DNA of 64,000 bases from Candidatus Woesearchaeota archaeon (GCA_046543005.1 JBKHAG010000001.1:1632-65631); one strand, 5' to 3'. Counted from the stretch's first letter, positions 42,639-64,000 are shown. The notes: generated by a model from the sequence alone, not told the origin. Translations and numbers: made by a program.

Positions 42639-42640
42639 GT

Positions 42641-44176: not shown

Positions 44177-44271
44177 ACAAACACCTCGTTTGATTGTACT
44201 GTAACTAAGAAAACATCATATTTAAATCTTTGTATAACAAAAAAGAAAAAAAGAAAAAATTGAACAAACAA

Positions 44272-44817
44272 TTAGTCGTTATAAATATCACAAGCAACAT
44301 AAAATTCTGCTTGAGCTGCTTGAACAGGAATTGTTTGTAAAAACACATTTTCTAAATGAAGAGGTCCAACAGTATCACCTTCAGACAAGGTATATTGAGA
44401 ATCTTCTATTATTATTGTTACAGTTTCAGATTCACTATTAACGCCTAATAACTGATAATCTAAGCCACAAAGAGTTGGATTACCAGAGTAATTATAAGTA
44501 CTTGTTTGTTCTGCAGAAACAGGAATTGTTTGAGTATACGTTTCAATAATAGTATACCCTTCAAAACCCATTACTACACGCATTGGAAAAAGATTTTCAT
44601 CAAAAGAATTTTTTGCTTTACTAATCTTTGAATCAACAAAATACTTCGCATCTCCTGCTAAATTTTCACTAGAAGTAGCATCATCTAAAACCATCCCGGC
44701 ATCATTAGGTATTGCCGTTTTATGTCCAGAAGTCGTTGTCATAATCAAACTAATAACTCCTATAATCGCTACTACAGCAACAAGAGAAATTAGTGCCAAA
44801 TTATTATTTTTATCCAT
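44272..44817 (-). CDS. Pilin-like protein, 181 aa
   Basis: MDKNNNLALISLVAVVAIIGVISLIM N-terminal hydrophobic segment. Confidence 0.45.
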   Translation of the reverse strand: MDKNNNLALISLVAVVAIIGVISLIMTTTSGHKTAIPNDAGMVLDDATSSENLAGDAKYFVDSKISKAKNSFDENLFPMRVVMGFEGYTIIETYTQTIPVSAEQTSTYNYSGNPTLCGLDYQLLGVNSESETVTIIIEDSQYTLSEGDTVGPLHLENVFLQTIPVQAAQAEFYVACDIYND

Positions 44818-44904
44818 TTTTTAAACACCTCACAACCTTAAAAAAGTTATGTCAATTAAAAATAATACTCAATAATATATAATATGTATCGATTTTCAAT
44901 AAAT

Positions 44905-45435
44905 TTACGGCATGCAAAAACCAAGTTCTACTTTGGCATCACCAGGCGTGGGATGATAAGGAATATGAAAAATCCCTGGAGCTCCCCGCCCCACTGTTTT
45001 AGGCAAACAATCTGCAAATGATTGATTAATAATAAGATCTTGAGAGGAAGAAACATAATGGTTTAAATCAATTTGTAAACTATACGGTATGTCCCACTCT
45101 TTAAGTGTTTGTTGAGAAATATGATCAACAATCTGCTGCACATAATCACACGAATTAAGAGAGCCACAAATAACTGTATTTTTAGTACCACAATTAACTA
45201 ACAAATCTTCAAAAGAAGTTTTTCCACAATTAGGAATAGAAACATCAAGTAACACATCAACATAACTTGTTGCGAGTTCATTATAGGCGTATTCTTTATA
45301 CAAACTTCCTTTTGAGGAAGCAGGTTTTGATGCACTATATGAAACATATACTAACATTGCAACTGTAAGAATAACAACGATTACAATAAGACCCATTATT
45401 TCAGATTGTCCCTTACGGGCGCGTTTAGAATTCAT
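44905..45435 (-). CDS. Pilin-like protein with class III signal peptide, 176 aa
   Basis: MNSKRARKG|QSEIMGLIVIVVILTVAMLVYV. Confidence 0.55.
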   Translation of the reverse strand: MNSKRARKGQSEIMGLIVIVVILTVAMLVYVSYSASKPASSKGSLYKEYAYNELATSYVDVLLDVSIPNCGKTSFEDLLVNCGTKNTVICGSLNSCDYVQQIVDHISQQTLKEWDIPYSLQIDLNHYVSSSQDLIINQSFADCLPKTVGRGAPGIFHIPYHPTPGDAKVELGFCMP

Positions 45436-45965
45436 GCTTGTACATTCCTCCTGTATGTTTGAATTTCCAACAATCCAAAATGGCTTTCGTCAGTAAGCGA
45501 ATCATATAATGTTATAGGAATAATAGTCATTGTTGAAGAATATGATTGATTATCACCTATTTCATTTTCATAAATAACATATTGGGTAACATCGCCTTGC
45601 TCAGATGTTGGATACACATCTTTAATAGTAATTTTTGCATCTCCAAATTGGTTAAAATAATATTCTGCAGCAAATGGTATGTTTTGTATTGTTGTATTAA
45701 ATAAACGTACTTTATATAAATCAAAACAAGACGTTTTTGCAACATCATATTCTGAGCAAGAAAGTTCGCCAAGCGAAGCAATGATTTGAGTTTGAGCAAC
45801 ATCGTCAAGATCGGCAAATGTTCGTGAAAGCGTTACTGTTTCTTCTTGTTGGGCGCGTGAAAAAAATATTATCCCTAAAATAATAAGAAATAAAATAACT
45901 ATAACTGCAAAAATAGATTCTAAGCTTTGCATTTGACCTTTTTTTGAAGATAGCAAATATTTCAT
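45432..45965 (-). CDS. Pilin-like protein with class III signal peptide, 177 aa
   Basis: LLSSKKG|QMQSLESIFAVIVILFLIILGIIFF; 4-nt overlap with next gene. Confidence 0.55.
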   Translation of the reverse strand: MKYLLSSKKGQMQSLESIFAVIVILFLIILGIIFFSRAQQEETVTLSRTFADLDDVAQTQIIASLGELSCSEYDVAKTSCFDLYKVRLFNTTIQNIPFAAEYYFNQFGDAKITIKDVYPTSEQGDVTQYVIYENEIGDNQSYSSTMTIIPITLYDSLTDESHFGLLEIQTYRRNVQA

Positions 45966-46060
45966 TTTTATTTTGTATTCTCTTTTTGTTTTTTTAAGTG
46001 CACATTTTTCTTTTGTTCTTTTTTATTATACTGTTTTTTATTTTCTTTTTGTTTATTTCT

Positions 46061-47287
46061 TTAATAAATTACAGGACATGTTCCTGAAATGTAAAGCTCT
46101 GCATTTGTTTTAGAGAGTTTTGTTGAAGCATCTTTTAATGTTTGAGCAACAGATAACGTCCAACGATTGCTTGATGAACTACTATCTCGTATAGTTTGTA
46201 CATGATCAACAGGACCAGACAAATCACCAACGCCTAAAAGATCTTGACAAACATGGGAAACATGATGTGATTGATTTAGTGTTTTATTATACAATAAGGA
46301 ACTTAGTAAGTAAGATTTTTTTAGGGCTTTATTCATTGTACAACGATACATATTAATGTCTTGACTAAACACTGCGGCAAATAAACTTGCTTTTCCTAAA
46401 TAAGGCGCAGTGTGAGAAGATTCGTACGTGTCAACTTGATCTTCAAAGGAAGCATCATCGGTTTTTTTATCATCAAAAGCTATTGTTGGCCAATTAGTGG
46501 GAACTTGAGAACCACCATAAACACTAACCATTCCTGCACCAAACACGTCTGAAGGAATGAGTGGCTTAATATGCACCACCGTCACATCGTCTGAAGGAAG
46601 CTTGTCAAGTATGGAAAAAACATCTTGTTCTTCAAAGGCAAACACAACATAGTGCGCGTATCGTTGTGAAGAAAGAGCTTCAATATCTGTTTCATCTTCT
46701 ACAATAATTTTTGTGAAATTTGTTGGGAAAACATTTAAAAAATCCCTATATGAAGTCATTAAATGATCTGAAGACGTCTCGGCGTTAGAAGAGATAGTTG
46801 ATTTACTTTGTTGTTCTTGTGAAAACACATATGCAGTATCTTCGTTTGTTGCATATAAAAAAGTTCCCACATCAAAACCCAAAGACCACTTTTCTGTATA
46901 GGTAAATAGTTGATTTCCAACAAGTTCTTTTGGACCGACAATTAAATCATATTTTATTTGGTCAACAACATAGTCATTAAATCGATAATCATAAAATCCT
47001 GCTGAATCGCTACAAGTAAATGCAAGCGTTCCTTGAGGAGTGGCAAATGTTTTAACAGTTGCATCTTTTTGTGCTGAGGAAGTAAAAATTGTTTGAAAAC
47101 TTTTTGCTATTGTTACAGATACTTTTGTTTGTGAAGTTTGTGAGGTTGTATTTATTGTTGTTAAAAAAAATCCAAAAATAATAACGCCAACGATTAATAC
47201 AAATATCCAATTAAATTGAATACTTATTTGACCTTTTTTTGAAGAACGAGAGCGAAAAAAAAGAGTTGAACGGGGTGGTAGTGTCAT
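46061..47287 (-). CDS. Pilin-like protein with class III signal peptide, 408 aa
   Basis: RSSKKG|QISIQFNWIFVLIVGVIIFGFFL. Confidence 0.55.
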   Translation of the reverse strand: MTLPPRSTLFFRSRSSKKGQISIQFNWIFVLIVGVIIFGFFLTTINTTSQTSQTKVSVTIAKSFQTIFTSSAQKDATVKTFATPQGTLAFTCSDSAGFYDYRFNDYVVDQIKYDLIVGPKELVGNQLFTYTEKWSLGFDVGTFLYATNEDTAYVFSQEQQSKSTISSNAETSSDHLMTSYRDFLNVFPTNFTKIIVEDETDIEALSSQRYAHYVVFAFEEQDVFSILDKLPSDDVTVVHIKPLIPSDVFGAGMVSVYGGSQVPTNWPTIAFDDKKTDDASFEDQVDTYESSHTAPYLGKASLFAAVFSQDINMYRCTMNKALKKSYLLSSLLYNKTLNQSHHVSHVCQDLLGVGDLSGPVDHVQTIRDSSSSSNRWTLSVAQTLKDASTKLSKTNAELYISGTCPVIY

Positions 47288-47289
47288 AG

Positions 47290-47865
47290 TTACACCTCAT
47301 TTGTGCTTAAAACAAGCGTTGTTCTTCCTAATCCTTGCATTCGAAATCGCGCGCGACCATTTGTTGCTTGTTTACACAACACAGAAACAGAGCCATCATC
47401 ACCTAAACCATCGTCTTCTTCATCTTCATCTAAAACTATGTAAGAAGAATATCCTAAAGGGTATACAATAGAGTCACTAATTAAAAAAAGATTTGTTGAC
47501 ACGCCTTGCTCTAAAGAACGAAGAATAAGTTTTTTAGAAGACGAAGAAAGATCATATATACCTGTAAGAGAAATGTCAAGTTCATCGTTTGAGTTTCGTA
47601 TATCTGCAATTGTTTGTGCAGAGATAAAACATAAGGTGTGATACTTGCCAGGAAATACCCATTGTTCTTGCGTTACTGAACCATAATCATTATTTCGCTG
47701 TAAAGCGGTTTGTACATCATCAGAAAAACGAATTAAATCAACTAAATCTTTATCTTGCATAACATCATTAACACCTTTAAAACCCACAAAAGATAAAATA
47801 ACAATAATAAAAAGAGCAGCAATGAGAGGAAACAATAATTTTATTTGAGCAGTTTTAGCAAACAT
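47290..47865 (-). CDS. N-terminally anchored pilin-like protein, 191 aa
   Basis: MFAKTAQIKLLFPLIAALFIIVILSFVGF; stop/start abuts neighbours. Confidence 0.4.
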   Translation of the reverse strand: MFAKTAQIKLLFPLIAALFIIVILSFVGFKGVNDVMQDKDLVDLIRFSDDVQTALQRNNDYGSVTQEQWVFPGKYHTLCFISAQTIADIRNSNDELDISLTGIYDLSSSSKKLILRSLEQGVSTNLFLISDSIVYPLGYSSYIVLDEDEEDDGLGDDGSVSVLCKQATNGRARFRMQGLGRTTLVLSTNEV

Positions 47866-50800
47866 TATGTTTTACCCCCTACAACATCTTGATAAAAAGA
47901 AGAAATGTTTTTAGTTTGTATATATCCTTTTTTTGCCAGACGAGACAATACACTTTTTACATCTTCAGAAGTGAGTTTTTCTTGATGTAATAATGCTTTT
48001 AGAAGAGAAAGTAAAGCAGGCGTGTCTGATGCATACACAGGTATTTTTTTAGCAAATAAATGCATAAAAAGGTCTGGGGTGATGTGTCGAGGAACAGTTG
48101 TTGCGTGTTTTGAAAGTTGAGTTTTAGAAACATCTTCTGTGTGAGCTTTGTCAATTAGAGAAGATAATGATTTAAAAGTTTTTGAAGACGGCAAAGGAAT
48201 AGAAGACGAAGTAGGTTGCTTATCAAGACTTATTTTTTCAAGAGATGGTGTATCATCTTCACTTGGACTTTTAGAAACGGCTTTTTTATTTTTTGCTTGA
48301 AAAGAAGGTTTTGAATCAGCATCACCATCATTATCTGAGGAGGATGAAAATGCGCTTAATAAAGATTTTCTTGAAGATGATCGTTCTTGAACTCGTTTAG
48401 ATCTTGTCTCTTCTTGAAGCTGTTTTCTTTTTTGCATAAGTTGAGCATACTTTTGTTGTCGAGCAATTTGTTCTTTTCTTGAGAGTTCTTCTTGGCGTTG
48501 TTGTTGGGCCGTTTGTTGATAAGTTCTTTGCTGTTTATTTTGTTGAGATTTTTCTTTTTGAGAGTGATAAATAAAAGCCACACCGCCAATCATAAACAAC
48601 AATCCTAAAATAATAAACGTAAGTCCTAAAAAAGATATTGATGAGTCAGTGGAGTCGGAGTCTTGAGTGCTATCCCGACAATTTCCTGAAGTTGAGCAAT
48701 ATTCTTCTGGTTTACAATCATCATCGCTCGTACATTCTGCTTCGTATTCACTATATCCTAAAGAAAATTGTTTACTTGCAAATACTTCGTCTCCAAAGTC
48801 ACATACTACAACCCACTGGTTAAATTCTTCTGTTTTATTACTTACAAAAGCAGGATGAGAGCTTGCATCGATTGTTTGTTTGTGGGTCGTACTGTTAGTG
48901 ACTGTAAATGTTTCTAATGACGCAAACCAATCTTGTTTATTTGTTGGATGCGTTGATTCAAAAAGTCCTTGAGTGCAAGTTGCATCGTATGTTGTTTGTA
49001 CTTCTAAGTCAATAGTTTTAGTACTTGAAGATCCTTGACGAGGAGAAATAAGCGTAATATCTTGCTCTGCAATATCGCTTTGAGAAAGTGTAAATGGCGT
49101 TGCAACATCGCTAAGTAAAACGCTACCGTTAGTTTGTAAACCTGCAACATCACTACCTTGATAACAAAATCGCGTATCTGTTGGTGAAGATATTGGCATG
49201 GAGTAACTTGTTGATTGATTAAAGGTCGTGCATGATTCGTTGCTATCTATAAATGAATAAGATACTGTTTGCGTACATCCACTTCCTACATCTGCACAAG
49301 TTGCATTAATAAGATAGCCCGATGGTTGTTCTTGCACATCAAGAGTTATTACTGGAGGCACATCGTCACAATATAAATAATCTGCACTTCTTTGCGTAAC
49401 ACTAAATGATGACGAAGAGCTATTATGTCCTGCGCGATCTTGAGCATACGCAGTTACCACATAGGTGGAATTTATGTTAGTATCAATACTTGAAGGGAAT
49501 TCAAAATCTAACTCATCGTCTGTAAAACTTGTCGTATAATTTTCTAAAAGAAAAGTAGTGTTTTCTTGTTCGTTAATTGAAATAATATATCGCACTGTAT
49601 CATTTATTGGTTCTGCAAAGGTTACTTGCACATCAGAGCCACAATGATTTTTTGTTGAATTAAACACTGGCTGAGCCGGCTCTGTAGTATCAATATAAAA
49701 AGTAAATGTTTTAAAAAATGAATCTGCCGCTAAACAATAAATATCAATTGGATACGCACCATCATCTAAACTTACAGGAAGTTCAAACTCGTGAGTCTCA
49801 TTTAAAGTAGTATTGTTTGTTATATTATCAGCTAATTGTTCATCTTCATAATCAAATACATATTTACATGCTGATAAAGTGTTAGTTTGTAGCGTAAGTG
49901 TTGGTTGTTTTTTTGAAAAATAATATTCTTGAAGATTTGCTCGAAGTGTGGTGTTTAGATGAATTGAAAAATCTTGAACTTTGGATTGTTTATGTCCTGC
50001 TAGATCATAACAAGTTGTATTAAGAGTATAATTATAAGTATCTCCGATAATAAACTCTTGAGAAACAAAATTAAACGCCTTATTATATGAGGAACTAAAA
50101 TCAAAAATACTTGTTGCTTTTTGTCCAGTATACAAATCACTTGTTGGTTGATAATTTGGTGAAGGATTTTGTAAAAAATCATATGAACACAATAATAAAT
50201 CTTGAGATGTTGATACTATTTTTTGAGTGGTAGAAATATTTAAAATATCAAAAATGGTTTGAGGTTGTGCTTGCGAACTAAAACTAACCCCTGAAGAATC
50301 ATACCCTATATAAAAAGGATTTGCATGATATGTATAATCTCCATCTTGGCCTGTTTGACAAAGTAATAAATAATTATTATTTGTTTGAAATGAATCAGAA
50401 GTAAATTCCTTTGCAACTAAATAAGTTTGAGGTTCTAAGTCTGAAACATCATCAGATGAACTTACAACTAATAACTCGTGAGTGTGTGCTTGCTCGTCTT
50501 CTCCTAATTCGTCATCCACACGAATAGAAGTTGGTAAACTAAAAAGGTCTTCTTCATTTAATATTCCTAATTCTAACAACTCATTATTTTCTACTAACCG
50601 ACAACGAGATTCGTGTTCTGTTTGAAAAGTAACATTAAAAGGTGTTTGGTTCCTTACCGCACTGTCTTGAGATTGTGAAGCGTAAAAAGTATTAGCAGGC
50701 GAAGTAATCCATGCATCCATAGGATTTGATTCTACTTCGAATGCTTTAGTAAATGTTTTTTCATTCCCGTCTGTATCTTGTGACGTAAGCTCAAATTCAT

Positions 50801-51086
50801 ACTCTCCATTAAATAAATAAACTTGAGACATACAAGTAAACGAACGATTATAATCATCTTCTTGGACACATTGAGCAGAGTATACCTTTTCTGAATCTAA
50901 AGAAACAATTTCTGAAGCAAGTATGGTAACTGGAGCGTCATGCATTTCAAATTCTACTTCAAAAAAAGGTATTGGCGAATAAGAACTTGCAACTGTTGTT
51001 GAAGCAAGAACAGGCGATAGTGAGAATAAAAGAGCCAAAGCTAAAAAAGAATAAAGCAGTAACTTTTTTTTTAGCTGTGTATTCAC
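47865..51086 (-). CDS. Giant (1073 aa) type I membrane surface protein: signal peptide, large acidic/Cys-containing ectodomain, TM, coiled-coil Q/K/R-rich cytoplasmic tail ending in KKGY..ISSFY motif
   Basis: MNTQLKKKLLLYSFLALALLFSLSPVLAS; TM ISFLGLTFIILGLLFMIGGVAFIY; tail QQRQEELSRKEQIARQQKYAQLMQKRKQ...; C-term LSRLAKKGYIQTKNISSFYQD. Confidence 0.55.
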   Translation of the reverse strand: MNTQLKKKLLLYSFLALALLFSLSPVLASTTVASSYSPIPFFEVEFEMHDAPVTILASEIVSLDSEKVYSAQCVQEDDYNRSFTCMSQVYLFNGEYEFELTSQDTDGNEKTFTKAFEVESNPMDAWITSPANTFYASQSQDSAVRNQTPFNVTFQTEHESRCRLVENNELLELGILNEEDLFSLPTSIRVDDELGEDEQAHTHELLVVSSSDDVSDLEPQTYLVAKEFTSDSFQTNNNYLLLCQTGQDGDYTYHANPFYIGYDSSGVSFSSQAQPQTIFDILNISTTQKIVSTSQDLLLCSYDFLQNPSPNYQPTSDLYTGQKATSIFDFSSSYNKAFNFVSQEFIIGDTYNYTLNTTCYDLAGHKQSKVQDFSIHLNTTLRANLQEYYFSKKQPTLTLQTNTLSACKYVFDYEDEQLADNITNNTTLNETHEFELPVSLDDGAYPIDIYCLAADSFFKTFTFYIDTTEPAQPVFNSTKNHCGSDVQVTFAEPINDTVRYIISINEQENTTFLLENYTTSFTDDELDFEFPSSIDTNINSTYVVTAYAQDRAGHNSSSSSFSVTQRSADYLYCDDVPPVITLDVQEQPSGYLINATCADVGSGCTQTVSYSFIDSNESCTTFNQSTSYSMPISSPTDTRFCYQGSDVAGLQTNGSVLLSDVATPFTLSQSDIAEQDITLISPRQGSSSTKTIDLEVQTTYDATCTQGLFESTHPTNKQDWFASLETFTVTNSTTHKQTIDASSHPAFVSNKTEEFNQWVVVCDFGDEVFASKQFSLGYSEYEAECTSDDDCKPEEYCSTSGNCRDSTQDSDSTDSSISFLGLTFIILGLLFMIGGVAFIYHSQKEKSQQNKQQRTYQQTAQQQRQEELSRKEQIARQQKYAQLMQKRKQLQEETRSKRVQERSSSRKSLLSAFSSSSDNDGDADSKPSFQAKNKKAVSKSPSEDDTPSLEKISLDKQPTSSSIPLPSSKTFKSLSSLIDKAHTEDVSKTQLSKHATTVPRHITPDLFMHLFAKKIPVYASDTPALLSLLKALLHQEKLTSEDVKSVLSRLAKKGYIQTKNISSFYQDVVGGKT

Positions 51087-51116: not shown

Positions 51117-54100
51117 TTATAATCCTTCGTTAGTATCTCCTATCGTTGTTAAAATAATAGTAGGCTCATCAAATGTTGTTTTTCGAAGTCTCATGTTTAC
51201 TGAAACAACTTCTCCTGTGTTGCCTAATTCATCTTCTGCCCACACGTGTAAATGTTTATTTGAGTATTGTTGTGCATTAAATGTAGCCAATTTAGTATAC
51301 TCTTCTTCATCTGAAAAAGAAACAGGGGAACTAGATTCTAAACAATAAGTCGAAGGGTTAAATTCATCGCCTAACGCTAAACCACTACCAACACAATATC
51401 GTATCATTTTGCAACCAGCATGTACAACCTCTGGCTTATCAGTACAATTTACAACAAATGTTCGTTCATCGGCCCAGTGTACCGATTCAGAGTTATCATG
51501 GTAGATTTGCGGAGGCGAATCATCAATCTCAGGATACTCTTCATTAAAATCATCATCTTCATACACAACATCTTTATGATATAGTGTTACTTGAGGTCCT
51601 TCTTTATCAATTACAAAATTAATAGAATCTGCTTCTTGATTTTGTGTTATTGTATCATCTTCAAAGTCACAACTTGTATAATAATGCACATAAGTATTGT
51701 CATTAGTTAAAGTCAAAGGAACACTTGCTGTGTGTGTATATGTTCCATCACTGTTTTGAGAACTTTGATCAAAAGAATACTGTCCTTGAGTTGTTATTTT
51801 TTCTTGGTCAAAAGTACAATTTCCTGGTTGTTGCGTGACAATTGAAAATTCATCCACGTCATCAATTGAAGAGAAAAAGTCTGCGTGAGGACTTGGATTA
51901 GTAATACTTATGTCGCCATCTATGGTAATGCTCGTTGTATTTTCCACAGTATTTCCTGCTTCATCTGTGCAAGACAATTTTGCTTGATACAAACCATCTT
52001 CAAGGTTTTGAATCTGAATAGATTCTTCGCTGGTTTGTTCAAAAAAATAGTGCCAATTATTAGGACTACCCATTTCTTGATTGGATACTTGTAGTTCGCA
52101 AGTAGATGGTTCTGATATCGTAAAATTATATTCTAAAATACTTCTATAAATATCCCCTTGCAAAATTTGTTGCGAATACAGTTCATAAGAAATATCCAAA
52201 TCAGGATTTTGCGTATCTAAATAAATTTTCGCAGTGTTAAGTTCTTCTTTATTTTGAGCATCGTCTTGGGCGTAATAGAGCAACAAATATTCTCCTTGCT
52301 CAACTGCGGATTCTTCATTTTGCTCTTGTAAATCATCAACAAGATCATCAAACGATTGTATTGGATATAATTGATATCCCTCGTCTACACAATCTTGAGC
52401 TCGTTGAAGAATAGGCATTTGAGAACTTTGAGCATCATCGTGTGTTGGTGAATCTGTTTGTGTTTGTTGTCTTTGGCTTAAATCGTATTCAGAATTAACT
52501 TCATCATCAGGAGGCGTATTTTCTTCTTGTGTTAGATCTTCTTGATGTTCAACAAGTAAATTCCTACAGGATAAAGAATCTGTTGTAATAGGAATTAAGC
52601 TAGCATATAATTTAAGACCCTTATCAGAAAACACATTATCAGAAATAGTATAGTCTAAATTTTCAAGTGTTTGTAAACTATATGTTGGTAAATTATTTGA
52701 GTTTTGATTAGTGTTAAGAACTAATTTTGTTCTTGGAGCACTATTATCTGTATAACAAAGTTCATCACTTGAAGACCGACAATCATCTTTAGTTACTCTT
52801 TCTAATTGTTCGTTAGTATTTTTTACACAATAGCCTTCTTGAGAAGTATCTCCTGTTTGAATCCATTGACATGTTGTATAATTAAAATAATCATTACTTT
52901 CTTGAAGTTGTTTATTTGTCCCTAAAACTGCTTCATCGTTAGCATACAAAATATCAAAGGAAGAATTTTTAGCCAAAGAAAGTTTTCCTACACAATCTTC
53001 TTTAGTGTCATAAAAAAAACAACCCATGTCTTCTTTATCAATACAATTTGAATAATAAGTATCACGAGAAATTCCTAAAATATCTTTTGCAACAATTTTT
53101 TCTTTATCTGTGTCTTCTTCATTAGTATCTGCAAATAATCCTCGCTGGTTAAAATAACAATTTTCTCCATACGCTTGACAAACCAACTCATCAGCATAAC
53201 CAGTCACAGAATCATCTGCTAAAAAACAATCTTGTTGAGTAACATTTGTTGGTCGACAAACCCCCGTTTTTAAATCATCATCAATAACAGACCATTCACA
53301 TCCCGAATCGTGATTTTCTTCGTCTGTAAATTTATAACAACTATCCACTTCACAAGAATCTTTGTTTGTATAATCATAACAAGTTTGTATATTATTACAA
53401 GTAGAATATACTTTTTGTGTAGCAAATGGCGAATCAATATAACAAAGTCCTTCACCGTTAGAAACATCAGGACCTGAACCTTCCAAATAGACTAAATCTG
53501 AACAACTTGTTTTTTTACCATCATACATCACGTCTAAATCATAATGACCAAAAAGTCCAAAAAAACCATTGCACGCAACACATGGAGCTTTAGGTTTACA
53601 TTCGGCACCAACATCTGTACTTGTTTCTACGCAAGTTTCATCAGCATCACATTCTTGTCCAAATAAAGATAAATTTACCAAACCTTCATCATTTTTACAA
53701 GATTGCGGAGCGTAGGTTCCTGAGGTAGTTTCTAAACAATTTTTTCCCCCAACATGAGAGGTCATACAATATTCAACACCTGTATTAAAGCAAGGAAGTT
53801 TTTCTTCATCTTCAAAGGCGCAACGAATATTGCCAGCATCATCTTCTAAGCACACATTATAACAATAAGAGGTCTCTGGCTTAAGTTTATTTTCAAAAGT
53901 ATATGTATATACATCATTTGGAGAAGAAAACAAATCACTTCCCGAAATTTGTTGAGTATATGACGTCCCCCCACAATGGCCTTCAGAACCGGATTCTTCA
54001 CACATCATAACTTCATAACTAACAACATCTGATTTACAAGCGTCTTGAATTTTCCAACGAAGTTCAACATTGTTTGTTCCCTGTTCATACCATATTCCTG

Positions 54101-55385
54101 TTTGGTTTTCTTCAGGTAATCTATTTTGAGCAGAATATATAGAAAAAACATTTTTTGTTAAATCTTGTTCACTAAATAAAGGAGTGTTTAAAAATATTGG
54201 TTTGTTTTCTACACATTCACCACCACACACATAAATATTATTTTCACAATCGCTAGGACAGTTTTCACAATCAGATAGAGTGCATATACCATCACAATTA
54301 GGAAGGCAATTCGAAAAATCATAAGCACAACCAGAACAAGCCACTTCACCATCATCGTCTTGACTAAATTGTGAAAACAAATTACAACTAAGATTATCTA
54401 AAGGGTCTTCAGACTCTCCCCTTGGGTCAACAAAAAAAGGTTCACCATCTACTATTTCACACTGTTCGCCTGTTGCTTGTAATTGATTATCACCGCATTG
54501 ACTACTTGTTGTTTGAGGCGCGCAAGTTTGAACTTCAGAGGGTTTATTTTCATTATTATCACATGTTTGATTTTCTCTCCAAACAGTCCTATTTTGTATC
54601 CAAGCACCTGCAACTTCTTTACAATCACTCCAATCAGAATAATTCCACACAGGATTACATACTTCGCGTTTATATAAACAATCCAAGGTAAAATTTAATT
54701 TAGCGTCTTCATGTAATGATTGCGTATGCGTTAAGGAAGTACACTGATATAAAACCTCATCGTATACAAATGTTCCATCAGTAGAAGCGATAATTTCAAA
54801 TTCATTTTGACCATCCATAATTCCTGGAACTTCATTTATGTGATAAAATCCCTCATCGTCAGCTTCAACAGGGCTACTAATGGAGCCTTCAATTATCATT
54901 GCACCTTCTAAAGAAACGACCTCATTTCCTGCAAGATCAGGGTTATTAACAAGATTTGCAAAAATATAACCAGATACATCATGATAATTATCTTGAGAAG
55001 TAGGATTACACACTACGTCACAAGTAAGTGAATCTCCAAGAGATTTAAATTCATACTCTTCATCAGCGCTTTGACTTGCTGCTTCACAATATTTTTTAAA
55101 AATTTGTGTAGAGTCTTCACCAAAAGATTTTGGTTGAGTACCATCACAACAACAACCAGTTTCAAAACCTTCAGACAATAAAATAGCTTCATCAAGAGTT
55201 GTAGCATCCTGAACATCAACAGGTAAAAAACCAGAAGAACACTCTCCCTCGTCTAAATTAACAAGATAATCGGATGAAGAACTAACAGGACCTAAACAAA
55301 ACTCATCTGCTAATACATTTGAAGATAAACTAATTACAAAAATTGCAATACATAAAACCAGGAATAATTTTTTCATACTCAACAC
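51117..55385 (-). CDS. Giant (1422 aa) secreted Cys-rich acidic protein (putative adhesin)
   Basis: Signal peptide MLSMKKLFLVLCIAIFVISLSSNVLA; >90 Cys, very D/E/S/T/N-rich; no TM after signal. Confidence 0.5.
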   Translation of the reverse strand: MLSMKKLFLVLCIAIFVISLSSNVLADEFCLGPVSSSSDYLVNLDEGECSSGFLPVDVQDATTLDEAILLSEGFETGCCCDGTQPKSFGEDSTQIFKKYCEAASQSADEEYEFKSLGDSLTCDVVCNPTSQDNYHDVSGYIFANLVNNPDLAGNEVVSLEGAMIIEGSISSPVEADDEGFYHINEVPGIMDGQNEFEIIASTDGTFVYDEVLYQCTSLTHTQSLHEDAKLNFTLDCLYKREVCNPVWNYSDWSDCKEVAGAWIQNRTVWRENQTCDNNENKPSEVQTCAPQTTSSQCGDNQLQATGEQCEIVDGEPFFVDPRGESEDPLDNLSCNLFSQFSQDDDGEVACSGCAYDFSNCLPNCDGICTLSDCENCPSDCENNIYVCGGECVENKPIFLNTPLFSEQDLTKNVFSIYSAQNRLPEENQTGIWYEQGTNNVELRWKIQDACKSDVVSYEVMMCEESGSEGHCGGTSYTQQISGSDLFSSPNDVYTYTFENKLKPETSYCYNVCLEDDAGNIRCAFEDEEKLPCFNTGVEYCMTSHVGGKNCLETTSGTYAPQSCKNDEGLVNLSLFGQECDADETCVETSTDVGAECKPKAPCVACNGFFGLFGHYDLDVMYDGKKTSCSDLVYLEGSGPDVSNGEGLCYIDSPFATQKVYSTCNNIQTCYDYTNKDSCEVDSCYKFTDEENHDSGCEWSVIDDDLKTGVCRPTNVTQQDCFLADDSVTGYADELVCQAYGENCYFNQRGLFADTNEEDTDKEKIVAKDILGISRDTYYSNCIDKEDMGCFFYDTKEDCVGKLSLAKNSSFDILYANDEAVLGTNKQLQESNDYFNYTTCQWIQTGDTSQEGYCVKNTNEQLERVTKDDCRSSSDELCYTDNSAPRTKLVLNTNQNSNNLPTYSLQTLENLDYTISDNVFSDKGLKLYASLIPITTDSLSCRNLLVEHQEDLTQEENTPPDDEVNSEYDLSQRQQTQTDSPTHDDAQSSQMPILQRAQDCVDEGYQLYPIQSFDDLVDDLQEQNEESAVEQGEYLLLYYAQDDAQNKEELNTAKIYLDTQNPDLDISYELYSQQILQGDIYRSILEYNFTISEPSTCELQVSNQEMGSPNNWHYFFEQTSEESIQIQNLEDGLYQAKLSCTDEAGNTVENTTSITIDGDISITNPSPHADFFSSIDDVDEFSIVTQQPGNCTFDQEKITTQGQYSFDQSSQNSDGTYTHTASVPLTLTNDNTYVHYYTSCDFEDDTITQNQEADSINFVIDKEGPQVTLYHKDVVYEDDDFNEEYPEIDDSPPQIYHDNSESVHWADERTFVVNCTDKPEVVHAGCKMIRYCVGSGLALGDEFNPSTYCLESSSPVSFSDEEEYTKLATFNAQQYSNKHLHVWAEDELGNTGEVVSVNMRLRKTTFDEPTIILTTIGDTNEGL

Positions 55386-55534: not shown

Positions 55535-58500
55535 TCATTGCTCTTCCCAACCAGAACCAGTACACTCAAAACCATCAACAGTCGCGTCATTATTTAAACA
55601 AAGAGAACTAGTAAAAACATCGCGACAATCAGAAAAATCTTCAAAACAAGGATAAATAATTCCATCTAAACTTAGCAAACGATTATCTGAAACAATATCA
55701 CCAGAAGCCACAAGATCACCAGCAATACACGTCCAATCTCTACCATTATTTTTATACAAATCTGATTGTGAAAAATAATCATCTTCATCATCACAACAGC
55801 GATCTATGTTATAATCATCATAAGGCTGCAAAGAATTACCAAACCAATTAGGAGTTATATTTTCAAATTCAGCAAGAAAAGACGTATCAGCCCACGTATC
55901 ATCACCAAATGTTTGTAAAAGTGCAGTAGCACACGTACAACCTATTGCTGTTGTTTGAGATTCATAACTATTCCCCTCCTCATCGCAACCAGCGCTATTA
56001 TCATTTGTTGCTCGACAGACAAAATAGTCGTTATTATCAGAAAAAAATAATTCTGCAGAAATGCCTTGACATTTTTCATCAGCATTTAAAGACATCTTGC
56101 ATTGAGTAACATCATGATACGAACACTGACCAGAAGTTTCATCACAAGTTGCATAACATGAAAAGACCTCAGATGTAGTGACAGGATCAATTTGTAAACC
56201 TTGTGAATTCCAACCAATATCAACACCTTGCTCACTTCCACACAACCCTTCATCTAATAAGTCAATATACTCATCATCAACTTCTAAACTTCTATCTTTT
56301 TCAAAAGAGTTTTGCGAAGAATAATTATAACACATTACATTATGTTCATCAATAGATTCTTTTAAAACAAAATTTTCTCCACAAGAACTTCCCTGTATTT
56401 TTTGACTTTGTGAAAATCCAGGTCCTTGACAGCGAGCAAATTGTTGACCATCCAAATCCAAATTTTCATATTGTTCTTCAAAATCATTAAAGTCATTACA
56501 AACTTGTAAAGATTCTCTTGTTATTGTTACATCTCCAGAACAAAAAGCACCTCTTGAGCCGCTACATTCTTGAGAAATTGCAAGTGAAAGAATATCATTA
56601 AATGAGTTATCAGTAGAGGAAATTTCATAATCATCATACGTTTCTAAACTCGAAGAACCATCATTTGATTCTACCAATAAATGAGAAAAATAATCCCAGT
56701 CTTCATAGTCATTTGGTGCACAAGTGATAAAATCATCACCATGAATTGAAAAACACTTTTGATTGTTTGAATAAAATTTTCCACCTTCTAAAAGGGAAGG
56801 GAAACTATTAGGATCACAACAGACGTGAGGGGATTGTAATAAGTCGCTATTATCAGGATCTAAAACTGTTAGTAAAGGATAGGTATCAGTTGCATAATCT
56901 TGCACATCAAAATCATAACCACCATCATACCCGTGCGGCAAACATTGCGCGACGTACACGTCTTGAGTTAATACTTCGCTTGTAAACGTTGGCGATGTTG
57001 CTAAGTCATCATTTTCAAAAGTTGTTTGATTTTGTTGTACATAAAATTCTATCAAATGTTTTTGAGGCGAAGAATCATCAGCAGTACTAAAAAACTGTTT
57101 TGTAAATTTTCCTAAAGACAAGTTAAACGAAGAATAAAGAGAGTGATTAGCCACAAAAAAGACATCATCTGTGGAGTTTATTCTAAAGTCTTCTGTATTA
57201 TCTTTAAAGACATACGTAGAAATGTGCCCGCCTAAAAGTGTTGAAGGCTGCGAGCGCGACGCATTAACAATATACTTATCTTCAATGGAGGCAAAGGAAT
57301 TATTTACATCATCATATTCATTTAACAAATTTAAATGGGCTTCTGGCAAGTCAAAGACTAAAATAGAAACGTTTTGAAAATCAATTTGACCAAACTCATC
57401 ACGTAACATAACTAAAACATCATGCACGCCAATATCTTCAACAGTTGTTGGAATACTTGCTGATTGATTTGTTTGTTGATAAAGCGACGAGTTCATCCAT
57501 GTAGGTACTGTTTCTTGTGCGTTACTTGAACTACCAAATTCCTTTTGGTCAATTGTTCCATTATCATTAAGATTAAACACGTCAACACAATTACTTGTTG
57601 AGTCAAGCTCAATACACTTTTGTAAATTAGCTTCATCTTCTTGACAACATTGCCAATCAACAATAGTTGTATACTCTTGACGCCAACCACCATATTGAAA
57701 TTCGATATCATCAAGATCAGGGTCTATTCCAGAAGGTTCAAGCTTTATTGGTTTTCCTGCAACGAATTGGTAATCAATTGGTTTATCAAATAATACTAAT
57801 TGCGTCCCTTTTTGACGCAAATAATCAAGAACGGGCGCTCGTTGTTGCACGCCAATATTAAAATATAATGATTGATCACCTACTTGTGAAGCAGAATCTT
57901 TTATACGTAATACATTATTTGTTCCAAGAACAATTTTATCATCATCAACATATTTTTCTTGTTCATACTCAACAACAAAAGATTTTTTGTAATGCCTATT
58001 CATCGTAGTTGTCGTGTTCCAATCAGTACGTAAATCAAATTCAGGATTTCTTACAAATTCAGAAAGTAAACTTGTTGTGTAATAATAAAGGTGTTCTAAA
58101 TCATAATCAAATTTTTCAAAAAAATCCGCATAAGCAGTTGTCGTTTTTCCTTGAATAGTTATTACAAAAGGATACCTTACTTGAAAAGAAATTCCTTTAG
58201 GTTTTTGAAACGCGCTAAATACTTCAATTGCTGATTCATTAACCCGCATATTTGCCGCGTTACTTTCAAAGACACTAAAGTTTACACAAGAATTTAAATT
58301 ATTTTTAATATACGTGTCAAGTTGACGTTGCAAGGAATGATTGTTTTGTGCAGAGTCATAATAATAGGGACTGCAAACTGCAAGCGAAGAAACATTAAAC
58401 GCGTTAAGACCATCATAAGAACAAAGAGGAGCCATGTTGTTTGTTCCCATATATCCGCTTCGTTGCACGCGATCATCACTACTTCCTCGACAACCACCAT

Positions 58501-59065
58501 TATCTAAGGATAAACGAAATTTTGTCATGTAATCAATAAAATGAGTTTTTGGTGTGGGATACCACGAGTCTTGTTCTTGAGCATTACTAAGATCTATAAA
58601 ACTGTTAGTTTGAGTAAGTGAAGAATCATAATCATATACGTTAGAACAAGAAACATCTGCAAGCACACCCATACTCACATTTCTTTTTTTAGGAGTATAT
58701 GTTACATAAGAGCCCGATTCTCCTTCTTGAGATTTATATTGATGTGCTTTTTCAACGTATTCATGATACAGTATGGGATGTGTAGATGAATTAGTAAGAC
58801 CTCCTTGATAATCATAAATTACACCTCCTTGTTGTGCAAGAAGAATAATTCCTTCGTTTGCAACACGATTCACACAACTTTGTACATATGTTCTAAGAGC
58901 AGTTTGTTCAATTTGAGATTCAAGATTTTCTTCGGCGATGTTTTGAAAAGAAGATTGTTGCAAAGATTGTTGCACAAAGGAAATAAAAAGAACACTAAAT
59001 AAAAGTAATAATCCTACAACAACAAAAACAGCAACTTGACCTCTCCTCTTCATATCCTCTAGCAA
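55535..59065 (-). CDS. Giant (1176 aa) protein with class III (prepilin-like) signal peptide: putative giant minor pilin/tip adhesin
   Basis: MLEDMKRRG|QVAVFVVVGLLLLFSVLFISFV; rest acidic, Cys-rich. Confidence 0.5.
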   Translation of the reverse strand: MLEDMKRRGQVAVFVVVGLLLLFSVLFISFVQQSLQQSSFQNIAEENLESQIEQTALRTYVQSCVNRVANEGIILLAQQGGVIYDYQGGLTNSSTHPILYHEYVEKAHQYKSQEGESGSYVTYTPKKRNVSMGVLADVSCSNVYDYDSSLTQTNSFIDLSNAQEQDSWYPTPKTHFIDYMTKFRLSLDNGGCRGSSDDRVQRSGYMGTNNMAPLCSYDGLNAFNVSSLAVCSPYYYDSAQNNHSLQRQLDTYIKNNLNSCVNFSVFESNAANMRVNESAIEVFSAFQKPKGISFQVRYPFVITIQGKTTTAYADFFEKFDYDLEHLYYYTTSLLSEFVRNPEFDLRTDWNTTTTMNRHYKKSFVVEYEQEKYVDDDKIVLGTNNVLRIKDSASQVGDQSLYFNIGVQQRAPVLDYLRQKGTQLVLFDKPIDYQFVAGKPIKLEPSGIDPDLDDIEFQYGGWRQEYTTIVDWQCCQEDEANLQKCIELDSTSNCVDVFNLNDNGTIDQKEFGSSSNAQETVPTWMNSSLYQQTNQSASIPTTVEDIGVHDVLVMLRDEFGQIDFQNVSILVFDLPEAHLNLLNEYDDVNNSFASIEDKYIVNASRSQPSTLLGGHISTYVFKDNTEDFRINSTDDVFFVANHSLYSSFNLSLGKFTKQFFSTADDSSPQKHLIEFYVQQNQTTFENDDLATSPTFTSEVLTQDVYVAQCLPHGYDGGYDFDVQDYATDTYPLLTVLDPDNSDLLQSPHVCCDPNSFPSLLEGGKFYSNNQKCFSIHGDDFITCAPNDYEDWDYFSHLLVESNDGSSSLETYDDYEISSTDNSFNDILSLAISQECSGSRGAFCSGDVTITRESLQVCNDFNDFEEQYENLDLDGQQFARCQGPGFSQSQKIQGSSCGENFVLKESIDEHNVMCYNYSSQNSFEKDRSLEVDDEYIDLLDEGLCGSEQGVDIGWNSQGLQIDPVTTSEVFSCYATCDETSGQCSYHDVTQCKMSLNADEKCQGISAELFFSDNNDYFVCRATNDNSAGCDEEGNSYESQTTAIGCTCATALLQTFGDDTWADTSFLAEFENITPNWFGNSLQPYDDYNIDRCCDDEDDYFSQSDLYKNNGRDWTCIAGDLVASGDIVSDNRLLSLDGIIYPCFEDFSDCRDVFTSSLCLNNDATVDGFECTGSGWEEQ

Positions 59066-60319: not shown

Positions 60320-63300
60320 CTAAACACGCGTTTGAAGTGCACCGGTGTTAGAACTATCATTGTCTGAAGAAAAAACATCATCATCAATGTCTAAAGGAGG
60401 TACGTTAGAACAAGAGTCGTGATTTAATTGACTTGATGAAAAATTACAACTAACAGTACCATAAGGGTGCGTTGCGTTCCAAAATTCACAACTTTGATTG
60501 TTATATCTATATATGACATCATCCTCTATTTGTTCACAATATTCTCCGAGTTCAAGCACACCATTGTTTGGTGTTGAGTCAAACAAGTTTGAATAATCTT
60601 CATCTTCTTTACTAGTAAAATCAGGAAGTAACACAATATCTTTCCAGTTAAAGTCCGGCCAAAATGTCATGTATTCTCCATACACGTTTTGCGCAGCTAC
60701 AGCACCGTCATCCGGATTAGATACTCTTTCTTTAAACAAAATACTAAATTGTTGAGTGTTTTCATTTCCTGTAATAAATGGTCGGGCGATAAAATCAGAA
60801 GGCACTCCCGCGCCAATAAATGGTTCGAGCGTTTTTTTAATAGATGGAAAATTTCTATACTCTACAACGAGCTGTTTAAGATTATCTGTTGATTGTTGCA
60901 CACCTTCTTGCACTGCAATAATTTGTTTTTGTCCACGCGAACGCATTGCAAACACATCAAAGTCAGCATCGTTAATTGTTATAGGTAGAGTTGTTTGTGC
61001 ATCAAAAACTCCAGTATCGTGAAGTCCAGAAGAACTTGTAAACCACTGGTTTAATAAGTCTTTAAAGTCCTGCCATAAAGCGTTAAAAAATCCAGTCTTC
61101 GTAGCAAAAATACCGTTAAAATCATTATCGCTAGTTAGTTCTTGGGCGATAAGTAATATATTAAAGTCAGGATTATAAGATAATCGTACATCTAAACTAC
61201 TCGTAGTTTCAAAATCATCACATACTTGATAAAAGGTTTGTGGTGTTGTGGTTGATTGCTCTACAGAATTACACCATGTTGTAATATCTTGATCATCATT
61301 ATTACTTGTAAACCCTGTCAAGTCTTGACTTGCAAAAAGCAAATGTTGTTTTATTGAACTTAAAAATTCACTAGCAGTATAATCTGAAGAATGACTAAGC
61401 GCAACAAGAGAACTCACATCATCATTTTCATCATAAAGTGTTAAAGTACAAAATGTTGTGATATTTTCTGAAGTTAAATCTTCTAAATGTGATTGTTCAT
61501 GAAGATATATTTCTTCAGGAATAAAATTTTGCACATCTTCACACACTAAATCAAACGAGTAACGTTCAACCACGCCATCATCTTGTGAAGCAATTGTTAA
61601 ATTATATAATGATGAAAGCATAATAGTTGCTACAGGGTAATCTTCGACAGGAATCCACGCACCATGGTCTGAGCAAATATGTGTTCCTTTCACAACAAGA
61701 GGATCCACAGTAGTTTGTACTAAAGAATTATCTTGATTAAAAGTTTTTCCATCAAAACTTTGTTTAAGGTCGTAATCCTCATTTCCACAAAGCAAATATT
61801 CTCCATCAAAAAATAATAAGTTATCATAATTTTCTTCGTTAAGACGTTCACCTACAACTTCGTCGTCCATGACAGGATTACCATGAAAACATCCGCCCTT
61901 AGCATCAGCCCAGTATTCTCCACCTAATTGATTGCCTGCGGTTTTGAAAGGAATATAAGTATCATCTCCACAACATGCTCGACCAGTCCAGTCAAAGCTT
62001 GCTTGCGCCTCACACGCATACCAATATTCGCCAGTTTTATCAATTAACTCATTTGAAAAATCTTCATCAAACCAACCTTTGTCAGTTTCACCATCAAGAT
62101 TACTAATCCACGAACCAAAGTTTCCTGTACAATAATGCGTCGGAGTATTTGTTGTTAAATCAGAATCATCTTCACTTACAAAGAAGTTATCTACTGCAAT
62201 AGTTGCATGGCCATTTTCAGATGTTTTAAATTTAACAGCTTTTATCAAAGACATGTCAAAATTGGAAGGACAAGATTGAGGTAATTCAAATACTGCATGG
62301 TGCCAACGCATCTGTGATTGTCCATTTAGCAAACTTTTTGAAAGTTTCCCTAAAGAACAATTATTATCATTATTATCTACTAAATACACAGACGTATAAG
62401 AAGCAAAATCTTTTGTATTAAAAGCAATATCAAATTCTAAATAATCAAATGTTTCAATATTTGTTTGTTGTTCATAAATTAATTTATTTTTAGGTGAAAA
62501 AGTAAAATAAAAAATCCCATCATCATCTTTTGATTGAATTGCAACCATATCTTTTAAAACACCATCCTCAAAAGTATCAAAATTTTTCAATGTATGTAAT
62601 GTTCCTCCTTTTCCATAAAACCCTAAATTATTTTGATTCCCGCTCTCAGAGAATAAAGAAACATCTAAATTATTATTACACGTTGTATAATCAGTACAAC
62701 ATTCTGAAATTCGAGCTTGACCAGAATGACTATAACAAATAAATGCTTCAGGAAGAGTTAAATCGCCAAGAGCCAATGCTTGAAAATTTGGTTGCCAACC
62801 ACTATTTGCTAAACAACAGGTTTGGCCAACAATAGACCCGGAACAAATATATGAAGATGTTGTATCTGCTGGGATATAGTCGCCTAAAATAGAGTGACAC
62901 GTTTCTTCATCTAACTCCTCACCCTCTTCAAGAAGTGGTAAAGGCGCGCTTATATATTCAGGATCAGTAATAGAATCTTGTGCAACACAACAAACCTTAT
63001 CTCCTCCAAGAGTTTCACTTGTTTGGGCATAATCACCTGATAAACAATAATGAGAAGAATCTACTAAATGACCAGTATAAGATATTTCATCCCTTTCAAA
63101 ATCAATATCTGAACAAGAACCTTCATATGAACCAGACTCCATTAAACAATTTTCTAAATTATCTCCACAAAAAGATTTCTCTTGAAAATCAGTAGTTTCA
63201 TCGGTTTCTGCATCACTAGAATCTAATGAAGAAGTATCACAAAAAATACTATCACCATTTAATGCAACACACAATTCTCTTGTAATGTTAGCTTTACAAG

Positions 63301-64000
63301 AGCTATCATCTATATTATTAACAAAATCAGAAATAGAATTAAAATGACCTTCATCATCAGCATCTAAAACACTTTTTTTAGCTTTACAATTATATTCTTG
63401 GTCTCCTTCATAACAAACAGTTTTAAAACCTTCATCATTGCTTTCAAATGAAAATGTTGCTTGAGAATCACAATAAAAATTGGCTGAAGAATTTGTTTCA
63501 AAAAAGAAATTAACGTCATCTGCTAAAACATCTTGACAAACACCATCTTCAGCAAATAAAGGAGCTAAAGCATTTAAAGGGTTAGTACAAGGAAAGCCCT
63601 CGTTTGCTGTTGTTGAAAAAGAAAAATTTTCTCCATCTGCAATCGCAATTCCAGTTGGACGATTTGCACCAGTTGCGTTACAATAAAACCATTCTTGACC
63701 ATTTGCAATATAATCAACACCAGCAACAGAATGAATGATAAAAGAATTAGGACCTTCTTGAGCATCCCACCATCTCCAAGCAGGAGTATAGTCAGAATAA
63801 ACCAAATTATTCCATAAAGTATATTGGTATTCATCAGATAACGAAGAATCTACTAAACCATAAAAACTATCATTTGCACACAAATATTGTTGATCACCAG
63901 TAGAAGAAGAGGTTCCAACATACCCAAGATCTCCACCATTTAAACTAATTAAATTAGCATCATCACCACAACACCCATCAGAACCATCTTGAATTTCTTC
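60320..64000 (-). CDS. Giant secreted Cys-rich acidic protein, 5'-partial (open frame continues to window end; ORF-track start is an internal TTG)
   Basis: 39 in-frame sense codons upstream of TTG 63881-63883 with no stop (…GDQQYL|CANDSFYG…); >1200 aa visible; composition like other giants. Confidence 0.5.
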   Translation of the reverse strand, partial: EEIQDGSDGCCGDDANLISLNGGDLGYVGTSSSTGDQQYLCANDSFYGLVDSSLSDEYQYTLWNNLVYSDYTPAWRWWDAQEGPNSFIIHSVAGVDYIANGQEWFYCNATGANRPTGIAIADGENFSFSTTANEGFPCTNPLNALAPLFAEDGVCQDVLADDVNFFFETNSSANFYCDSQATFSFESNDEGFKTVCYEGDQEYNCKAKKSVLDADDEGHFNSISDFVNNIDDSSCKANITRELCVALNGDSIFCDTSSLDSSDAETDETTDFQEKSFCGDNLENCLMESGSYEGSCSDIDFERDEISYTGHLVDSSHYCLSGDYAQTSETLGGDKVCCVAQDSITDPEYISAPLPLLEEGEELDEETCHSILGDYIPADTTSSYICSGSIVGQTCCLANSGWQPNFQALALGDLTLPEAFICYSHSGQARISECCTDYTTCNNNLDVSLFSESGNQNNLGFYGKGGTLHTLKNFDTFEDGVLKDMVAIQSKDDDGIFYFTFSPKNKLIYEQQTNIETFDYLEFDIAFNTKDFASYTSVYLVDNNDNNCSLGKLSKSLLNGQSQMRWHHAVFELPQSCPSNFDMSLIKAVKFKTSENGHATIAVDNFFVSEDDSDLTTNTPTHYCTGNFGSWISNLDGETDKGWFDEDFSNELIDKTGEYWYACEAQASFDWTGRACCGDDTYIPFKTAGNQLGGEYWADAKGGCFHGNPVMDDEVVGERLNEENYDNLLFFDGEYLLCGNEDYDLKQSFDGKTFNQDNSLVQTTVDPLVVKGTHICSDHGAWIPVEDYPVATIMLSSLYNLTIASQDDGVVERYSFDLVCEDVQNFIPEEIYLHEQSHLEDLTSENITTFCTLTLYDENDDVSSLVALSHSSDYTASEFLSSIKQHLLFASQDLTGFTSNNDDQDITTWCNSVEQSTTTPQTFYQVCDDFETTSSLDVRLSYNPDFNILLIAQELTSDNDFNGIFATKTGFFNALWQDFKDLLNQWFTSSSGLHDTGVFDAQTTLPITINDADFDVFAMRSRGQKQIIAVQEGVQQSTDNLKQLVVEYRNFPSIKKTLEPFIGAGVPSDFIARPFITGNENTQQFSILFKERVSNPDDGAVAAQNVYGEYMTFWPDFNWKDIVLLPDFTSKEDEDYSNLFDSTPNNGVLELGEYCEQIEDDVIYRYNNQSCEFWNATHPYGTVSCNFSSSQLNHDSCSNVPPLDIDDDVFSSDNDSSNTGALQTRV

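Follow-up and report, generated by a model that had tools for sequence, protein, structure and literature searches.

The 64,000-nucleotide stretch of Candidatus Woesearchaeota DNA analysed here (GCA_046543005.1, JBKHAG010000001.1:1632-65631; hereafter the window) is archaeal, with an archaeal RNase P RNA at 24403-24761 and a G+C content of ~33%, and harbors an uninterrupted minus-strand open reading frame (ORF) at 55535..59065 that encodes a giant protein with a prepilin-type (class III) signal. We interpret this protein, with moderate confidence, as a giant modular minor pilin or tip adhesin, in which a 131-kDa ectodomain would be carried on a pilin-type anchor. A sequence-only reading of the same DNA had described an ORF of 1176 amino acids (aa); that ORF is real and measures 1,176 aa when counted from the first TTG (59065), but the product is probably 1,172 aa long, with ATG 59053, four codons further on, as its start codon (target gene, 55535..59053, minus strand; stop codon 55535-55537). 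This ATG is preferred because it is preceded by GAGG at positions -6 to -3 and by a TTTAAAAA box ~27-34 nucleotides away, because it is the start annotated by NCBI (an entry 100% identical over 1,172 aa, labeled 'MAG: hypothetical protein ACLFNM_00260 [Candidatus Woesearchaeota archaeon]'), and because the homologs compared start M-x-x-[KR]-[GA]-Q, at the equivalent methionine. Unless stated otherwise, all features described below lie on the minus strand.

The product begins MKRRG/QVAVFVVVGLLLLFSVLFISFV, where the slash marks the putative processing junction: a basic leader of five residues (residues 1-5, 59039..59053) with glycine at -1, after which a prepilin peptidase is predicted to cleave, is followed by glutamine at +1 and ~25 hydrophobic residues. 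Loss of the leader would leave a mature protein of 1,167 aa (131.5 kDa, pI 4.1, 38 cysteines), in agreement with the earlier estimate of more than 1100 aa. The hydrophobic stretch (helix alpha1-N, residues 6-30, QVAVFVVVGLLLLFSVLFISFVQQS, 58964..59038) forms part of a modeled helix spanning residues 4-48.

As judged from sequence, this class III N-terminus is more than a chance resemblance, because matches to the motif cluster within the window and the junction is kept among relatives. When all six frames of the window were scanned in the manner of FlaFind, for [KR][GA] followed by any listed residue and a strongly hydrophobic 18-mer, the pattern turned up in the target and in 12 same-strand genes packed at 30395-47287; the rest of the 64 kb contained just two further matches, both weak. 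The junction [KR][GAS]/Q is present in 133 of the 152 family proteins in hand, none of which shares more than ~50% identity with another. Within these 133 proteins, whose alignment is defined by Gln+1, position -2 is Arg (71) or Lys (54) and position -1 is Gly (84), Ala (36) or Ser (11), while Thr3, Phe5 and Gly9 are found in 115, 112 and 119 sequences, respectively, yielding the consensus Q-V-T-L-F-V-I-L-G for mature residues 1-9 and the motif Q-x-T-x-F-x-x-x-G. Gln+1 is also invariant in alignments A1, A2 and A4. Leaders range from 3 to 41 aa among relatives. Conservation in an 83-sequence alignment is highest at mature residues 1-9 (residues 6-14; mean 0.71), compared with 0.41 for the second half of the hydrophobic helix, 0.54 for residues 51-85 near a QGG motif, mostly 0.28-0.39 for the body of the protein, and 0.17-0.22, at 60% occupancy, for the last 170 residues. 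The class III motif recognized by the sequence-only reading is thus borne out, the junction and the first nine mature residues being kept family-wide, and orthologs with the same N-terminus, for which it proposed to look, do exist.

The glutamate that bacterial and Methanococcus pilins typically have at +5 is absent, this position being Phe in the 112 relatives noted above; Glu+5 is likewise lacking in Sulfolobus and Haloferax pilins (PMC3875500) and is therefore no defining trait of archaeal pilins. The refuting condition set by the sequence-only reading, that the +1/+5 features be neither conserved nor common to the other pilins, fails at +1: Gln+1 recurs in five small neighbors, in their orthologs and in a canonical pilin described below. 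At +5 the target has Phe rather than Glu. Ser+3, Glu+5 and Leu+9 of the DUF361 motif Q-x-S-x-E-x-x-x-L are all missing from the family consensus, and no Class_IIIsignal or DUF361 match from Pfam was obtained for the target, for the first of 47 family N-termini (E<=1), among the 25 families listed for all 47, or in 42 full-length members. At E<=1, the Pfam Tad model (PF13400, a TadE/G-like pseudopilin N-terminus) was matched by 18 of the 47 N-termini, the strongest match reaching 6.6e-4 (the E-values refer to whole sequences and are weak, the cut-off not being displayed), and not by that of the target itself, a resemblance that is suggestive at most.

Beyond the hydrophobic helix, an amphipathic continuation (residues 31-74, 58832..58963), apparent in both alignments and model, contains a near-invariant Y56 and an invariant C60, and is followed by the QGG motif at residues 75-77. 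An AlphaFold2 (AF2) model built from the 83-sequence alignment, replacing an earlier nine-sequence run that was too poor to use (predicted local distance difference test, pLDDT, 48), reached a pLDDT of 80.5 and a predicted template-modeling score (pTM) of 0.62. It contains helices at residues 4-48 and 51-74 (together a ~70-residue N-terminal helix), a confident globular region at 75-410, beta-sandwiches at ~411-700, and a cysteine-rich remainder, and is least confident at residues 1020-1080. The membrane-proximal globular region (residues 75-410, 57824..58831), delimited by the model (pLDDT mostly 80-95) and by alignments, comprises a long beta-hairpin, short helices and an alpha/beta domain, with conserved cysteines at 136, 188, 211, 227 and 256. 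The beta-sandwich region (~residues 411-700, 56954..57823), which includes a conserved acidic DPD-x-D motif at residues 444-448, is comparable to adhesin repeat modules, in that fold searches matched cadherin, immunoglobulin (Ig) and PKD modules of adhesins; these searches gave no query ranges, and the placement rests on the secondary structure of the model. The disulfide-rich distal region (residues 701-1172, 55538..56953), recognized from alignments and model, has many invariant cysteines, and its last ~170 residues are the least conserved and often absent from relatives. No Pfam match to a PilY1 beta-propeller or DUF2341 was found in the target or 42 relatives, and neither a propeller nor a pilin fold was among the fold matches to the whole model. 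The ectodomain's 38 cysteines (of which about 30 are conserved), its 19 sequons for N-glycosylation, its net charge of -115 and these domain folds all fit an extracellular, adhesin-like and probably cation-binding protein.

The target is encoded within a conserved gene cluster, in which the order giant A, Memo, target, giant B, giant C, p191, p408, p177, p176 and p85 recurs across loci labeled Woesearchaeota, Nanoarchaeota and Nanobdellota (among them contigs of 369 kb and 1.07 Mb), some of which hold a partial order. The five last-named genes belong to a run of small class III-type genes (43919..47865), recognized by the scan and by their N-termini, all with [KRT][GA]-Q junctions: p191 (47290-47865), p408 (46061-47287; 408 aa), p177 (45432-45965), p176 (44905-45435) and p85 (43919-44176; 85 aa, six cysteines, KKG-Q). 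A 181-aa gene inside the run (44272-44817) has no class III motif. Orthologs of the five retain a [KR][GA]/Q junction, and this co-conserved group of small Gln+1 proteins resembles a minor-pilin-like set. The mature N-terminus of p408 is near-invariant across distant loci, x-(I/V/M)-Q-F-(N/G/A/S)-W-(I/V)-(F/Y)-(V/I)-(L/I)-I-(V/A)-G, and is still more conserved than that of the giant target (orthologs in L001, L003-L007, L009, L013 and L015). With a predicted mature length of ~77 aa, once an eight-residue leader is removed, p85 is the best candidate in the window for a major pilin, and barely reaches the Pfam cut-off for DUF6719 (27.9 bits vs. 27); by way of comparison, Methanococcus maripaludis MMP1685 is 74 aa long. 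Both small pilins named by the sequence-only reading, at 40612-40797 (KKG/E) and 43919-44176 (KKG/Q), do carry class III-type motifs.

The other large proteins of the cluster flank the target. Upstream, giant A (60320..64000) is an acidic, cysteine-rich protein of >1,187 aa that runs past the end of the window, and whose L001 ortholog has an N-terminal Sec-type signal. Downstream, the conserved neighbor giant B (51117..55385) encodes 1,422 aa with a Sec-type signal, 71 cysteines and a Big_13 Ig-like domain, while giant C (47865..51086), a 1,073-aa protein that also starts with a Sec-type signal, exceeds every other protein of the window in sequon density (24 sequons, 2.2 per 100 aa) and has a conserved C-terminal transmembrane helix with the motif ILG-x5-GG-x3-IYY, followed by a ~230-residue cytoplasmic tail rich in Lys, Gln and Ser. 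Giant C looks like a surface-layer (S-layer)-like anchor protein with an unusual intracellular extension. The four giants (47865-63883) have net charges of -68 to -190 and cysteine contents of 1.9-5.0%, compared with charges of -24 to +13 for cytoplasmic proteins of the window; this combination of acidity and cysteine suggests cation-dependent, disulfide-stabilized extracellular structures.

A Memo-family gene (PF01875; 59395..60276) lies directly upstream of the target, as it does of the target homolog in 12 other loci (L001, L003-L008, L010, L012, L020, L021 and L031). Its product is cytoplasmic, and nothing in the literature cited here connects Memo with the biogenesis of pili or surface proteins. 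In other systems (AmmeMemoRadiSam), Memo proteins and radical SAM enzymes occur as pairs. At one locus that lacks Memo, L013, a radical SAM/SPASM enzyme (4834-6237, minus strand) is encoded a few kb upstream of the target homolog, which may be a coincidence.

The only pilus-machinery gene recognized in the window encodes a FlaI/VirB11-type secretion ATPase (T2SSE; 907..3174), a 755-aa protein with an N-terminal extension of ~300 residues, 52 kb from the target. A multi-pass membrane protein encoded downstream of it (1-~900, running off the window) was considered as a TadC/FlaJ-like platform protein and set aside, Pfam giving no T2SSF match. A closer association is found at the locus of Woesearchaeota BM511 (L012), where the order is T2SSE ATPase (1.9e-33), T2SSF, T2SSF, canonical pilin, Memo, target homolog, so that Memo stands between the canonical pilin and the giant. 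This canonical pilin (162 aa, MFRRKG/QAAMEFLMTYGWAILVV), of which no ortholog was found in the window, has the N-terminus RKG/QAAMEF, with Gln at +1 and Glu at +5; the adjacent target homolog begins MKKKG/QVTFFIIIGMM.

These features are readily accommodated if the target is a minor pilin or tip adhesin, for which the following pathway may be envisaged. The basic, positive-inside leader would hold the N-terminus in the cytoplasm, and an archaeal prepilin (class III signal) peptidase would cut after Gly5 to expose Gln1. The conserved hydrophobic helix (Q-x-T-x-F-x-x-x-G) would serve first as a membrane anchor, and would then, alongside the operon's five small Gln+1 proteins, pack into a type IV filament core. 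Because a 131-kDa ectodomain would be too bulky for the filament body, it would be placed at the filament tip, or on a short pseudopilus at the cell surface; tip location of bacterial modular pilins has likewise been deduced from steric clash (PMC8179133). There, a conserved cadherin/Ig-like beta-sandwich stalk would present the variable, acidic, disulfide-rich distal end, which might bind the surface of a partner. The combination of a conserved N-terminal module and a variable distal end fits an 'assembly handle plus ligand-binding head', and Tad pilus tips are also known to expose variable domains (PMC12075869). The claim is kept modest because processing and filament association are what we infer from these data.

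Several observations weigh against this interpretation, and bear on the alternatives to it. No prepilin peptidase gene (Peptidase_A24-type) was found among the window ORFs scanned, and no Pfam pilin model scored above threshold, as would be expected if the N-terminus were an uncleaved type II signal anchor that resembles a class III signal in appearance only; the protein would then be a conventional membrane-anchored adhesin, or a protein associated with the S-layer, that enters the membrane via Sec/YidC. All single-pass anchors whose leader is positive-inside look similar, and AF2 would give any such anchor a long helix. Nor is the conservation of the helix itself distinctive: in a control comparison, the C-terminal anchor of giant C is conserved at 44% vs. 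a background of 30%, and the target helix at 47% vs. 35%, a similar excess. Helix conservation was therefore dropped as evidence; the sequence evidence for the signal consists of the junction together with mature residues 1-9, where conservation sets in sharply at Gln+1. That onset falls exactly at Gln+1 despite the variation in leader length, while the limitation of -1 to Gly, Ala or Ser and of -2 to Lys or Arg would be needless for an anchor, and an equal junction is found in the co-operonic small proteins and the L012 canonical pilin. We accordingly regard an uncleaved anchor as unlikely.

A more serious alternative, possible although we do not favor it, is that the target is processed as a class III protein but functions outside any extended pilus, its helix remaining anchored in the membrane or in a pseudopilus-like raft, either in a fixed complex with giants A, B and C (resembling the bindosome) or as an envelope scaffold. 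A pilus ATPase adjoins the target homolog in only one (L012) of about two dozen loci, and the cluster, which is conserved lineage-wide, is usually far from such an ATPase, some copies adjoining housekeeping genes instead (SecY and ribosomal proteins at L020; RNase P p30 at L001 and L021). A distance of this kind is nonetheless known for true pilins: in M. maripaludis the ATPase and platform genes lie at a locus apart from the EppA-processed pilins (PMC3875500). One member of the operon, giant C, is S-layer-like and bears a C-terminal anchor that is conserved, S-layer-like proteins have been placed in archaeal pilus loci by Makarova et al. (PMC4858521), and class III signals are established on non-pilin surface proteins, as in the bindosome (PMC3047682). 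What this account leaves unexplained is the co-conservation of five small Gln+1 pilin-like genes and the presence at L012 of full pilus machinery and a canonical pilin next to the target homolog; the extreme conservation of mature residues 1-9 moreover suggests packing constraints beyond those of cleavage.

It is also conceivable, but very unlikely in our view, that the target is a platform or stator-like basal assembly component, comparable to the archaellum proteins FlaF and FlaG, which have pilin-like N-termini. Among the class III genes of the operon the target comes first, its membrane-proximal part is conserved, and it is co-conserved with the membrane-anchored giant C, which bears a cytoplasmic tail; however, a 131-kDa ectodomain with adhesin-type beta-sandwiches and a variable, often absent C-terminal end better fits a ligand-facing protein.

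If the target is a giant minor pilin, its closest counterparts are the modular type IV pilins, widespread among bacteria, such as Streptococcus sanguinis PilB (vWA module) and PilC (lectin module), which likewise combine a class III signal and a pilin helix with bulky, ligand-facing modules (PMC8179133, PMC9934059); Ig-like modules (e.g., PF05345) are common grafts in these proteins (PMC8179133). In contrast to the target, which is archaeal, has 1,167 mature residues and Phe+5, and displays neither a recognizable pilin head nor a Pfam/InterPro-type signature, the bacterial proteins comprise a few hundred residues, a solved canonical pilin module and Glu+5, and the largest modular pilin in a bacterial survey is 860 aa long (PMC8179133). 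The sequence-only reading held that very large minor pilins are rare; at 1,172 aa the target does exceed this bacterial maximum, but metagenomes hold thousands of representatives of its family (see below), and large class III or adhesin-like proteins of archaeal pilus loci have been described before. Other oversized minor pilins encoded with small ones include CofB/TcpB (type IVb pili), GspK (type II secretion), ComZ (Thermus) and the TadE/F/G-type tips of Tad/Kil pili (PMC12075869). Like these large tip or initiator pilins, the target is conserved at the end that would serve assembly and variable at the exposed one, but it matches none of them in sequence or fold and is about twice their size.

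Among archaeal systems, the Epd pilins of M. maripaludis, which are substrates of EppA, have leaders of 5-13 aa ending in Gly and a conserved Gln+1 (PMC3875500), as does the target with its short leader; unlike the Epd pilins, the target lacks the Q-x-S-x-E-x-x-x-L (DUF361) signature and Glu+5, and no EppA homolog was identified among the window ORFs. The recently delineated 'system 1' (bioRxiv 10.64898/2026.04.22.720090), reported in some DPANN archaea, comprises a number of minor pilins and, in addition, some pilin-like proteins described as 'much larger', and the split platform genes of L012 follow the arrangement seen in M. maripaludis and system 1. The same preprint ties a long N-terminal extension such as that of the window ATPase to system 2, not system 1. 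In the pilus loci surveyed by Makarova et al. in 2016 (PMC4858521), S-layer-like proteins were noted along with large proteins that carry a signal peptide and were termed 'adhesin or minor pilin', and as in the cluster described here, small class III proteins occur with a large secreted or class III protein, a C-terminally anchored large protein and many conserved cysteines. The arCOGs concerned are mainly from Thermoproteales, Methanococci and Sulfolobales, DPANN and Woesearchaeota being unmentioned, and the target family, its Memo neighbor and the four-giant set are not described there. The Sulfolobus bindosome (PMC3047682) also involves class III signals on globular proteins of non-filament type, displayed at the surface by pilus-like assembly genes; its substrates are ~50-80-kDa solute-binding proteins linked to ABC transporters, whereas the target has neither a solute-binding fold nor a transporter linkage.

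The family to which the target belongs is large. A profile search of 1.84 billion cluster representatives recovered 4,778 relatives at E<=1e-3, including 502 at E<=1e-30; the best 150 relatives listed are mostly 950-1,350 aa long, with alignments mostly beginning at profile position 1-3. Searches of Pfam and NCBIfam with the target gave nothing, Pfam searches with 42 diverse full-length relatives nothing useful, and PDB sequence searches with full-length and N-terminal profiles no relevant matches. A homolog search repeated with a 42-sequence profile returned the same eight proteins only, and all-against-all BLASTP of the cluster proteins found no paralog of the target in the window. Carriers are so far restricted to genomes labeled Woesearchaeota or Nanoarchaeota. 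An odd ORF can thus be assigned to a defined, widespread and wholly unannotated family. New are the size and abundance of the family, its lineage restriction so far, the absence of any annotation, and the fixed operon in which it stands alongside Memo and the three remaining giants. The kind of protein itself (a modular pilin, or a large class III protein in the vicinity of archaeal pilus loci) is regarded as already known, because Makarova et al., the 2026 preprint and the bacterial modular pilins precede it. The 'modular pilin' idea is hereby carried to archaea, at sizes well above those of the bacterial catalog.

Adjoining the conserved cluster is a second class III block (35803..43918), in which eight genes (88-570 aa) pass the scan and three more (61, 166 and 287 aa) are near-misses recognized by eye. 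Two of its members, at 40782-41567 and 41775-42638, are paralogs with 32% identity. No counterpart of any gene of this block was detected in the other loci over the flanking sequence covered, and the block may be lineage-specific. At the downstream end of the class III genes, a 1,803-aa protein with the class III-like N-terminus SSKKA-IIIGVPVGVFLLF (30395..35806) combines an NlpC/P60 domain (E 2.2e-9) with a C-terminus that weakly resembles VanY (E 0.02), giving the appearance of a cell-wall hydrolase of bacterial type mounted, in an archaeon, on a pilin-like anchor. In a single BLASTP comparison, the N-terminal 240 aa of the target and the hydrolase N-terminus gave a marginal match (E 0.051), and homology is not claimed.

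Woesearchaeota and other DPANN archaea are believed to spend their lives attached to other cells, and imaging has revealed pili-like appendages that extend into hosts (PMC7906910). It is a speculative and, on balance, doubtful proposal that the whole cluster builds a host-contact organelle specific to Woesearchaeota/Nanoarchaeota and derived from a type IV filament, with giants carried on pilin helices and a pilin-anchored hydrolase breaching the wall of the partner. Its parts would be giant A, Memo, the giant pilin, giant B, the membrane-anchored giant C and the five small Gln+1 pilins, to which this genome would add 8-11 class III-like proteins and the 1,803-aa NlpC/P60 (and VanY-like) hydrolase. 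If true, such an organelle would explain in molecular terms the pili-like connections that have been seen to join ultra-small cells to their hosts. The target family offers a concrete candidate attachment molecule for DPANN archaea, together with a set of partner genes.

Far from the target, on the plus strand, two adjacent genes (8842-10551 and 10597-11892) encode class II Asp/Asn-type tRNA synthetases, the first with a GAD insertion, as in the bacterial-type aspartyl-tRNA synthetase (AspRS), and the second without.

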